This document shows positions 6,529 through 9,576 of a stretch of DNA of 12,698 bases, piece by piece; the first letter of the stretch is position 1, and every line of letters begins with the position of its first letter. Position numbers and translations under genes: made by a program. Location: assembly GCA_040880105.1 (NCBI GenBank), contig JBBDJA010000012.1, positions 1 to 12,698 on the forward strand, read 5' to 3'. The notes beneath the pieces were generated by a model, which did not search any database, had not been told where the DNA came from, and saw only the letters and a list, made by a program, of their open reading frames with translations. Source of the DNA: Waddliaceae bacterium (lineage in GTDB: Bacteria; Chlamydiota; Chlamydiia; Chlamydiales; SLOH01).

Positions 6529-7752
6529 ATGGCAAATCATATCAACGCATATTCTTTTGACCAGAAAATTTCCGATTTACCTGGGGATCGATATGGAAGA
6601 GTGTACCGAACAAGGCACCTACATCGGAGAAACCTTAATTCGTCTACTGAAGATCCAATATTTCCAAAATTTTCCGAGTGTTCTCATCTTCGTTTACATG
6701 GCCTTAATGATTTAGCTACTTTAGTTGATACATATCGCCTATCGATTGAAAACCATCATCATGACCGTATTACAACTTTTTTTTATGCAGCTATTTCAAC
6801 CTACCAATTAGGCTATACTTTTTCACTCGGCAAAACGCTTGAGCAAGCGGAGCCGGCGTCTAAACTTCCGGATATCTGTCAAAGAAATGCGTGTCACAGC
6901 AGTTTAATCCCCACATTGACTGTACGTGATTGCTTGTTTTTGCCGGGCTCAGATCTATATCACATGCTGAACAGAACAAACGAGCTGCCAAGAAAGGTAA
7001 ATGAAGCGGATATGCGACTTGAATATAAAATGCGTCAAGTTGCTATCGACATTATAAATGAGGGGTCAAAGGGAAGTCTCACCCCTTTTAAAGCAACAAA
7101 AATATTGATTCAGAAGTGCAGTGCAGTTCTGTCCGGATGTCAATCGGATTTAATTTTAAAACTTTACTATGAGTGCAATCGAAAAATTGAAAAGAATTTA
7201 AATAAAGAGTACTTGCAATCCCTACTGGGTCTAACGATCGTGCATTCAAAAGATGAAAAGGTGATTTCATTAAAGAGAGTACAATTTATTCAAAATAAAC
7301 ATATCCTTCAATCAAAAATATACGCAAAATTCAAACAGACCACTTCTATTTTATTGAATAATGGTAAAAATAGTGCGTATTTTCAAGATGCAATTATGTA
7401 TGCGTTAATTTCATTAATGAAAGGCCTGGATCGCAAGCGATTGCAAAATTTATTTTCCATACCACCTAAAGATTATTATTTTAATAGTAGTAGTAGTTGG
7501 AAATCAAAAGTCCTCGAAACTAAAGTTCGTTATTTAGTTGGTCAATTTCAAGTGATCTCCCTAGCGATGGATATATCTAAAATGATGGCTATTCAAAGAA
7601 AAAGAGATCGTCAAATCCAAAAGGAATTGATCGTTCAATTGAGAGGAAAAGACTCCATTCCTATTAAAATCGATACTTCATCTATAAAAAAGTGGTGTAT
7701 TAGGTATCAAGTTCACGAATCTGCTTTTTTTCCGGGGTTTTTTTATTCATAA
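6529..7752 (+). CDS. Hypothetical protein, paralog A of a tandem pair; possible His-Me finger nuclease-like domain
   Basis: 407-aa ORF, colinear with 7870-9576 through shared blocks HRRNL, NHHxDRITxFF, NACHSSLxPTL, GSDxY, NxTNxLPxKxNxADxxLE, MRQVAIDIINEGS, YFxDA, DISKxMA, ELxVxLRG and ESAxxPxFFYS. The coding call is strong; the function is inferred. Confidence 0.85.
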   Translation: MANHINAYSFDQKISDLPGDRYGRVYRTRHLHRRNLNSSTEDPIFPKFSECSHLRLHGLNDLATLVDTYRLSIENHHHDRITTFFYAAISTYQLGYTFSLGKTLEQAEPASKLPDICQRNACHSSLIPTLTVRDCLFLPGSDLYHMLNRTNELPRKVNEADMRLEYKMRQVAIDIINEGSKGSLTPFKATKILIQKCSAVLSGCQSDLILKLYYECNRKIEKNLNKEYLQSLLGLTIVHSKDEKVISLKRVQFIQNKHILQSKIYAKFKQTTSILLNNGKNSAYFQDAIMYALISLMKGLDRKRLQNLFSIPPKDYYFNSSSSWKSKVLETKVRYLVGQFQVISLAMDISKMMAIQRKRDRQIQKELIVQLRGKDSIPIKIDTSSIKKWCIRYQVHESAFFPGFFYS

Positions 7753-7869
7753 AAGTAGTTATTTCAATCTCTTAAATTTGTTTTTTTAATTCCTTTAATA
7801 AAAAACCATATTATATTAAATAAACGCTTAATTTAATGTATCTTAATAATTTTAATTTAAAATATTAAT

Positions 7870-9576
7870 ATGATAAATGGCGTAAGTATATACGATTTTG
7901 GACCTAAAATTGAGGATATTAATCCATCTCGAGTGCATAACCCCCATCGCAGAAATCTTGCCCCTTCTTTACAAGACCAAGTGTTTCCGGATCATGTGGA
8001 GTTAAAGGAAGAAGAAAGGGAAGAGCTGCAAGTCTTCGAGAAATTGGCAGAGAAGTATCGACCGCAGATCTTAAATCACCATAAAGATCGAATTACCGCC
8101 TTTTTCTTTGCAATGATCTCCACATGGGGAACCGGTCATCAATTTTCATCAGGCCCAACACTTGCACAGGCTGAGTCTGCCAGTCCACTGAAGGGGGTTT
8201 GCAAGAAGAATGCATGCCACAGCAGTCTTACACCTACACTAGTTGTCAATAAAAGAATTTGGTGTATGGGGAGTGATTTTTATATCATTTCAAACAAAAC
8301 AAATGATCTGCCGAAAAAGATTAACGATGCGGATCAGACTCTTGAAGGCAGTGAAAAAAATGCTGCAATGCGTCAAGTTGCAATTGATATTATTAATGAA
8401 GGGTCCAATAAAGAGATTACGCCGATTGAAGGTACAAAGAAACTTATCAATAAGCTGAATGAATTTCTATTGAATAAAGATAATGTTGTTTTAAAACTCT
8501 ATCTTGAAGCTAATCAATTGATTGAAGCAGAATTCCAAGAAAATGACTTTATTACCCTTCTTGGCTTTAAAGCAACAGAAGGTAAAGATAGAGATGCGAT
8601 TTTCTACAATAGAATGCGCATGCTTCAAAGTAAGCATTATTTGCAGTCAACTATTCAAAGAAAGGTATGTGATCTTGGCTACACGATTTTAAAAGGTCAG
8701 AAGAAAATAGCAGCTACGCCAAAGAAGCGTGCGATTACGCCGAAGAAAAAAGTTACAGTCAAGAAAACAACAGAAATTTTACTGAATGAAGCTGTGGCAT
8801 TTAGAGAAGAGGCTCAAGCGTTTTGCAAAAATGTAGAATTTCTTAAGAAAACTAATGCTTTTTGGAATAAAGTTGAGGTTCTTAATGAAGAATCTTCTGC
8901 TCTTAAGAGTGATGCTATAGCTCTTAAGGAAAAGGAAACTGTATCTAAAGAGATTACGGCATATAGAAAAAGGGCTGCAGCGTTTAAAAAGTCAGCGATT
9001 GCGTTTAAGAAAGAAGTTATCGCTCTTAAGAAAACCGCTGAAGACTCTAAGAAAGAAGTGGAAATTCTAAGGAAGCATGTGGATGCTTTTATAAAAGAAG
9101 GTACTGCATTTAAGAACATGTTTCCTTCTCAAATGAAGGATGCGACTCCCAAGAGACCTAACTACTTTGATGATGCATTGATTTATAAGTTAATTGACTC
9201 AATTAAAAAGAGTGATCGTGGGTGTTTGCAAAAGCTTTTTGCAATTCCATCTAAAGGATGTTTTTTTAAAAAGGGGAAACTCACGAGTTTAAATAAAAGA
9301 CTTGAAGAGTTGGATACACGCAAAGGAGTGAAAGCTGTTGCTGACGATATATCAAAATTGATGGCAGAGCAGAGAGATCGTGAACGATCCTTACAAAAAG
9401 AGCTCATGGTAGAGCTAAGAGGAGAGAAGAACCTTCCGGAAGAGATGAATTTCGAATCTATTCTGAAGTGGTGTAGAGAGCAAAAAGTAGATGAATCGGC
9501 GCTGCTTCCGGAGTTTTTCTATTCAGAAGAATTAAAACAAAAACAGCTTAAAGCGCGCACCCCCAAAAAATCCTAA
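7870..9576 (+). CDS. Hypothetical protein, paralog B with an inserted heptad-repeat coiled coil and TPK[KR] motifs
   Basis: 568-aa ORF with the same conserved blocks as 6529-7752. It adds a ~150-aa Lys/Ala/Glu-rich insertion (8701-9156) and a C-terminal tail ending ARTPKKS. Confidence 0.88.
   Translation: MINGVSIYDFGPKIEDINPSRVHNPHRRNLAPSLQDQVFPDHVELKEEEREELQVFEKLAEKYRPQILNHHKDRITAFFFAMISTWGTGHQFSSGPTLAQAESASPLKGVCKKNACHSSLTPTLVVNKRIWCMGSDFYIISNKTNDLPKKINDADQTLEGSEKNAAMRQVAIDIINEGSNKEITPIEGTKKLINKLNEFLLNKDNVVLKLYLEANQLIEAEFQENDFITLLGFKATEGKDRDAIFYNRMRMLQSKHYLQSTIQRKVCDLGYTILKGQKKIAATPKKRAITPKKKVTVKKTTEILLNEAVAFREEAQAFCKNVEFLKKTNAFWNKVEVLNEESSALKSDAIALKEKETVSKEITAYRKRAAAFKKSAIAFKKEVIALKKTAEDSKKEVEILRKHVDAFIKEGTAFKNMFPSQMKDATPKRPNYFDDALIYKLIDSIKKSDRGCLQKLFAIPSKGCFFKKGKLTSLNKRLEELDTRKGVKAVADDISKLMAEQRDRERSLQKELMVELRGEKNLPEEMNFESILKWCREQKVDESALLPEFFYSEELKQKQLKARTPKKS
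8791..9120 (+). repeat. Degenerate 21-nt (7-aa) tandem repeat encoding a coiled coil
   Basis: Units such as AVAFREE, AQAFCKN, SSALKSD, AIALKEK, ITAYRKR, AAAFKKS, AIAFKKE, VIALKKT, AEDSKKE, VEILRKH, VDAFIKE and GTAFKNM. The DNA words gctcttaag / gcgtttaa / ctaag recur at 21-nt spacing. Confidence 0.8.

Follow-up and report, generated by a model that had tools for sequence, protein, structure and literature searches.

Tandem paralogs of a Waddliaceae bacterium belong to a widespread chlamydial protein family with a predicted, diverged His-Me finger nuclease site

What is the function of a tandem pair of diverged genes in a chlamydial genome when, for the first of them, no Pfam family scores above cut-off? 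The question is raised by paralogs A and B, which lie on the plus strand of a 12,698-nucleotide stretch of DNA from a Waddliaceae bacterium (contig JBBDJA010000012.1 of assembly GCA_040880105.1, positions 1 to 12,698; the whole stretch is referred to as the window). A (6529..7752, +; 407 aa) is an open reading frame (ORF) call with an N-terminal arm, a predicted His-Me finger core, a helical domain, a long helical hairpin and the remnant of an XRE helix-turn-helix (HTH) domain; B (7870..9576, +; 568 aa), from an ORF call and alignment, has the same architecture. The first-pass annotation of this DNA, made from the letters and a list of ORFs, had proposed from residues shared by the two proteins that they are diverged His-Me finger nucleases and effectors directed at the host. 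Both ORFs and the quoted residues are in place (C117, H123, N148, N158 and D161 in A; C111, H117, N142, N152 and D155 in B), and HRRNL and HHxDR are present in both proteins. The codons of H123, N148 and N158 in A are 6895-6897, 6970-6972 and 7000-7002, and those of H117, N142 and N152 in B are 8218-8220, 8293-8295 and 8323-8325 (all +). The pair alone is weak evidence for a motif, because the identity of A and B, 44-45% along the whole length, is similar inside the motif window (A 116-170, 55%) and in the preceding segment (A 61-115, 53%).

The homologs say much more. A and B belong to a widespread, apparently undescribed chlamydial protein family. With A as the query, matches were found in 74 of 401 genomes, and a profile built from 65 core sequences matched 116 of 400 genomes of the phylum, mostly with one to three matches each, and none of 29 small genomes (listed at 1.0-1.3 Mb) of one family, probably the Chlamydiaceae. 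The core profile also matched 872 clusters at 50% identity; confinement of the family to Chlamydiota is not established, because the listing covers the best 150 of these. Named homologs come from Waddlia, Protochlamydia, Neochlamydia, Estrella, Parachlamydia sp. and Rhabdochlamydia, and two members carry the NCBI label Verrucomicrobia, yet match proteins of genomes placed in the same order as the A/B genome. Members are mostly 440-730 aa long and have a conserved helical scaffold; one of 1064 aa (L075:704-3895, -) has an additional His-rich C-terminal region. In a rough FastTree tree, read without regard to support values, A and B share a branch with one metagenome protein, and the rest of the tree mixes host families. 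A third member in the same genome (L141:772-2493, -, identical to G000:C14; 573 aa) lies on another branch and has an interrupted HTH. Three further members (L006, L020 and L021) have no ATG, GTG or TTG between an upstream Shine-Dalgarno sequence and the conserved arm but an in-frame ATT, which suggests that their start codon is non-standard.

Across this family, a small set of polar residues is nearly invariant. In counts that lean upward, the members having been gathered with profiles that contain these very columns, 248 members aligned with a hidden Markov model, distant ones included, kept H123 in all 248 cases, N158 in 246, Asp or Glu at 165 in 246, D161 in 241 (His in five), T150 in 240 and N148 in 233; in a MAFFT alignment of 197 members the figures were 197 for both H123 and N158, 196 for P128 and for Asp or Glu at 165, 195 for D161, 193 for T150 and Q106 and 192 for N148, and Q106 was kept in 250 of 264 members. 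The family consensus reads AAHS, then N-x-T, then N-x-x-D-x-x-x-D/E. The position three before the His (His-3) is Asn, Gln, Glu or Asp in 200 of 248 members and Ala occupies the position directly before it (His-1) in 223 of 248, and the loop between His and Asn ranges from 21 to 238 aa, with the site kept across insertions in distant members (the pattern matched 241 of 264). The core that the first-pass annotation had called invariant in A and B therefore survives in part: the His and the two Asn residues hold in homologs, but the cysteines (C117 in 9 of 66; C122 in 6 of 197, where 182 have Ala), the HRR of HRRNL and H77, H78 and D79 of HHxDR are not conserved; it is the A/B branch alone that has the cysteines, HRRNL and the greater part of HHxDR. 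A metal site based on Cys and His, offered earlier as an alternative, is refuted because C117 and C122 are not conserved.

A His-Me finger is described as a His that ends strand 1, an Asn in an omega loop of varying length, and a further Asn, or a His, within the opening turn of the helix after strand 2 (PMC5714182, which, like PMC3258162, PMC3482391 and PMC9457554 below, is cited from excerpts). An AlphaFold model of A, built on a 66-sequence alignment, reached a predicted local distance difference test score (pLDDT) of 89.3 and a predicted template modelling score of 0.89, with a pLDDT of 93.2 for the core alone. According to DSSP, H123 is the last residue of strand 119-123 in this model, N148 sits in a loop that also forms a small hairpin and a helix, and strand 150-154 leads directly into helix 155-180, of which N158 is the fourth residue and so part of the first turn. 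The predicted order of strand with His, variable loop with Asn, strand, and helix with Asn agrees with the His-Me finger definition, and the predicted beta-beta-alpha finger of A (residues 119-180; 6883..7068, +) is drawn from the model, conservation and covariation together. Residue pair 120-159 ranked third among 18,336 pairs (z 8.4, with two shuffles peaking at 5.4 and 6.6) and pair 120-162 ranked tenth, and the His strand would therefore pack on the start of the helix; covariation was computed on two different alignments of the same family that served as AlphaFold input, with a shuffle control that ignores kinship, and is thus not fully independent of the model. We consider it probable that the A/B family is one of His-Me finger nucleases. 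On this point the earlier proposal gains from the residues kept in homologs and from the modelled strand and helix order, but it lacks a structural match to a known member.

As alignments and profile matches show, most members end in an XRE HTH that is largely lost in A and B. A C-terminal match to HTH_3 (PF01381, XRE/Cro-C1) was seen in 25 of 66 members (E up to 0.05) and reached the curated cut-off in 7 of 40, and an HTH profile built from 15 members of the family matched 146 of 230. The corresponding site in A, residues 372-395 (7642..7713, +), was located by alignment and by the HTH_3 matches of relatives; its middle helices are gone, as they are in B and in the closest relative, and the family HTH profile gave 1.8 bits for A and 0.7 bits for B, indicating that the HTH is intact in neither. 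The residues of the predicted site are intact in members that lost the HTH, A and B included. The median pI was 9.1 for 220 members versus 6.2 for 709 ORFs of the genome. Two members (L043:1712-3613, -; L052:2258-4087, +) apparently have two tandem HTH domains, and a model of Wolbachia Wmk was matched weakly by 4 of 66 members (best E 0.0024), probably through the HTH only.

Among known nucleases, the Serratia/NucA/Spd1 group (Endonuclease_NS, PF01223) is like the A/B family in having a polar residue at His-3, a small one at His-1, a loop Asn, and a helix Asn that is probably the only residue to bind the metal directly. In Spd1 and Serratia nuclease the His is the general base and the Asn the Mg ligand, and Asn118 of Spd1 stands three before His121 (PMC3258162); the polar His-3 residue of the A/B family resembles this Asn118 and the DRGH motif of Endonuclease_NS. 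The A/B family differs in having AAHS instead of DRGH, a mostly helical scaffold without a large beta-sheet, no Pfam or profile match, an Asn-Asn spacing of 10 instead of 9, acids at +3 and +7 from the helix Asn instead of +8, a C-terminal XRE HTH in most members, and, for A and B, no hydrophobic signal or membrane segment. I-HmuI-type HNH homing endonucleases (HNH_3, zf-His_Me_endon; group 2 of PMC5714182) likewise join a His-Me finger to an HTH DNA reader, but members of the A/B family are chromosomal, are built on the helical scaffold at the lengths given above, carry an HTH of the XRE class, and had no NUMOD or AP2 domains that we could find. The HNH clades of polymorphic toxins, Tox-AHH, Tox-SHH and Tox-GHH, share small residues before the His, and the SHH effector reported in Simkania is a precedent for a chlamydial HNH effector (PMC3482391); the domain of the A/B family is instead near the N-terminus and not at the C-terminal tip, has a single His (AAHS) and not HH, comes without immunity gene, RHS stalk or Pfam match to these clades, and has a motif that none of the HNH toxin clades in the excerpt matches. 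Vvn and endonuclease I resemble the A/B family in a finger sheltered by a large helical domain and in an elaborate omega loop, and differ from it in that the family has no conserved cysteines, no acid at His-1 and no structural match. Decayed Endonuclease_NS remnants with several stops adjoin two members, L066 and L068 (G055:C1, near 2341850-2342419 and 1462590-1462999).

In the mechanism that we propose, the nuclease site of the family would be a new and diverged form of the His-Me finger (HNH type), likely that of a one-metal DNase. By analogy with His-Me finger chemistry, H123 would activate water as the general base, N158 would hold one Mg2+ and N148 would fix the loop; basic surfaces, together with the HTH where present, would hold DNA, the HTH guiding binding, and the helical scaffold would stabilise the finger. 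The protein might then pass by type III secretion, through a Ser/Pro/Thr/Asn-rich N-terminus, into a eukaryotic host and cut DNA there, which is the weakest step, and a protein secreted into the host would therefore need no immunity gene. As the first-pass annotation stated, no such small gene lies beside A or B: the gaps of 49 and 117 bp hold none, and the end of B overlaps yajC (by 4 bp). Across 65 loci, no recurrent small neighbour that could encode an immunity protein or antitoxin was found. Because a nuclease is predicted without a protector gene, delivery to the host is the best single explanation, and we tentatively favour A and B being host-injected His-Me finger nucleases; an effector role of the family is plausible.

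Signs of delivery are mixed. The genome of A and B has one FHIPEP (SctV/FlhA) and one YscJ_FliF (SctJ/FliF) match, both families that also cover flagellar genes. The median N-terminal composition score was 0.20 for the family, 0.20 for 13 ankyrin proteins and 0.00 for 60 conserved proteins, and A stands at the 83rd percentile. Patterns for a nuclear localisation signal (NLS) near the N-terminus were commoner in members without an HTH (10 of 84 versus 2 of 146), in a comparison between kin that are not independent and with a crude HTH-less class. In a single case, that of one metagenome member (L152:1020-2198, -), the neighbouring gene, in head-to-head orientation, is an SctW-like one of type III secretion. 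Waddlia members were not found in the list and supplements of a heparin mass-spectrometry study (PMC6426960), nor was the Protochlamydia tag in the part of the expression supplements of PMC5451489 that was searched; the locus tags used, pc1947 and wcw_1791/1792, derive from accession arithmetic. Several points count against host delivery. The N-terminal score is a post hoc composition measure and not a trained predictor, and B scores 0.00 (57th percentile). NLS motifs show no enrichment, with 15 of 234 members versus 21 in shuffles, and neither of the two patterns tested occurs in A or B. A paper on the host-cytosol secretome (PMC7143554), searched in its text and supplement, did not list the Waddlia members, and the XRE HTH is a bacterial-type DNA reader.

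Other observations weigh against the His-Me finger itself, and some of them would suit a secreted DNA-binding effector in which the Gln/His/Asn/Thr/Asn cluster forms another catalytic site in a new fold. The additional ligands of His-Me fingers, Asp, Glu or His before the His and a polar residue at +4 or +8, have no counterpart in Ala at His-1 and acids at +3 and +7; this departure is not exclusive, because PMC5714182 calls such ligands 'often' present, but with Ala at His-1 there is a single evident direct metal ligand. The helix acids covary with H76 and R80, so that D161 and the acid at 165, judged by these pairings, are at least partly structural and not the simple equivalents of the NucA-type Glu first supposed. 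N158 follows N148 at a spacing of 10, where the two reference families have 9, and covariation between strands 1 and 2 is weak (121-150 at rank 52, 119-153 at rank 100). Foldseek on PDB and BFVD and VIA-align, run with whole and core models, gave no clear match and no His-Me finger among the PDB rows listed, the best core match (Z 5.1; root-mean-square deviation 4.6-4.9, 90-103 aligned) being to unrelated helical proteins; this silence does not exclude a His-Me finger, because the motif comprises 45 residues. A BFVD row labelled HNH was set aside as noise (E 5.1). No Pfam match was obtained in 65 cores and 56 motif pieces, nothing recurred for the core in Pfam, NCBIfam, PHROGs or PADLOC, PDB sequence searches with core and motif profiles returned nothing significant, and in the ESM Atlas there was no usable match to A and, for one relative, HTH matches only, under 0.9. 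Profile-profile comparison with Endonuclease_NS (18 sequences), HNH (28) and HNH_2 (represented by 1 of 4 loci and hence uninformative) also gave no match, which carries no weight because the control, HNH against Endonuclease_NS, failed too (E 0.13) although both are genuine His-Me families. Besides this lack of any fold or profile match and two spacings that are off by one, a different chemistry could draw on invariant Q106 and T150, to which no role is assigned, and on the exchange of His76/Asp161 for Asp/His in all five members with His161 (two ORFs of L049, and L086, L095 and L096), likely one event because the five form one branch. It has to face the agreement of strand, helix and residue order with the His-Me finger definition, and we regard it as unlikely. 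The core had no confident match to any other known family in profile and fold searches, and HEPN and 2H readings were dropped, the Arg and the HxS/T position of their motif definitions not being conserved. A transcription regulator whose N-terminal domain is catalytically dead or senses a ligand would fit the name 'helix-turn-helix transcriptional regulator' that NCBI and JGI give to some members, others being 'hypothetical'; these names derive from the last ~60 aa alone, the polar site persists in members that have no HTH, and 107 member upstream regions share no operator of the kind that autoregulation would use, which makes a regulator very improbable.

The same His-Me finger nuclease might instead act inside the bacterium, as a stand-alone enzyme guided by its HTH, against incoming DNA of phages or plasmids, or serve in DNA processing. 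The XRE HTH as a reader of bacterial DNA, the patchy spread over genomes of the phylum and one close group that seems to have few residues before the conserved arm speak for this, but no PADLOC family recurs on the core, the 107 upstream regions again offer no shared operator, the N-termini resemble the ankyrin set, and the neighbours give no partner: the scan covered 83 of the 102 flanking genes chosen, and the named ones were mostly housekeeping genes (citrate synthase, recO, truA, kdsA, gpsA, proC, glyS), with no DNA methylase or immunity protein among them. Three transposases were present among the scanned genes. We think an in-cell role rather unlikely. That members adjoin many different conserved genes, combine HNH and HTH as I-HmuI does, and come from host families mixed in the rough tree would also be expected of a free-standing homing endonuclease, a selfish gene spreading by cuts near conserved genes of co-infecting chlamydiae. 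Such a gene fits poorly with tandem paralogs and with HTH loss while the site stays intact, as in A and B, and it is at odds with stops in only 3 of about 150 matches listed, with a median dN/dS of 0.11 in a group of eight members (28 pairs), and with the absence of relatives from plasmids, phages and viral contigs for the queries used; we hold it to be quite improbable. Host injection of A and B thus remains the reading that we favour. A broader form of it, in which an HTH-guided DNA cutter of environmental chlamydiae repeatedly became a type III effector, often losing its HTH, and cuts host, organelle or giant-virus DNA in protists, possibly blocking giant viruses, is conceivable, though we consider it doubtful.

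The two paralogs differ in an insertion of ~154 aa in B (8692..9153, +), which the alignment shows to be absent from A. It consists of a Lys-rich part with TPKK motifs followed by ~17 degenerate heptads (lag-7 self-identity 0.31), the latter likely a coiled coil, and TPK[KR] motifs occur in B at residues 283, 290, 426 and 564. The Lys-rich TPKK part may add non-specific DNA binding or nuclear import. In the window, the pair is flanked by topA-SWIB, yajC, tgt and an RNA methyltransferase gene. The topoisomerase I fused to a SWIB domain (2878-5457, +) is a fusion that we take to be a chlamydial hallmark. Directly 5' of A, a 299-aa orphan (5580-6479, +), with no homolog in 150 other genomes, has a hydrophobic hairpin at about residues 164-211 that presumably resembles that of a chlamydial inclusion-membrane protein. 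An ankyrin-repeat protein (191-2329, -), from a genome in which 13 ankyrin ORFs were found, has a C-terminal stretch of ~220 aa that matches no assigned domain.

A description of the family was not found in the literature by theme or by accession, in a search that left most subscription papers outside. If the assignment is true, several hundred proteins that are currently called 'hypothetical' or 'transcriptional regulator', some of them in cultured organisms (Waddlia, Protochlamydia, Neochlamydia, Estrella and Parachlamydia sp.), would acquire a function open to testing, and the His-Me finger superfamily would gain a new group that combines a helical scaffold with an XRE reader. Parachlamydia acanthamoebae blocks the maturation of giant-virus factories, for which bacterial effectors of unknown identity have been proposed (PMC9457554). 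That the A/B family is behind this block is speculation, but an injected DNase, if confirmed, would be a concrete candidate for such an effector.

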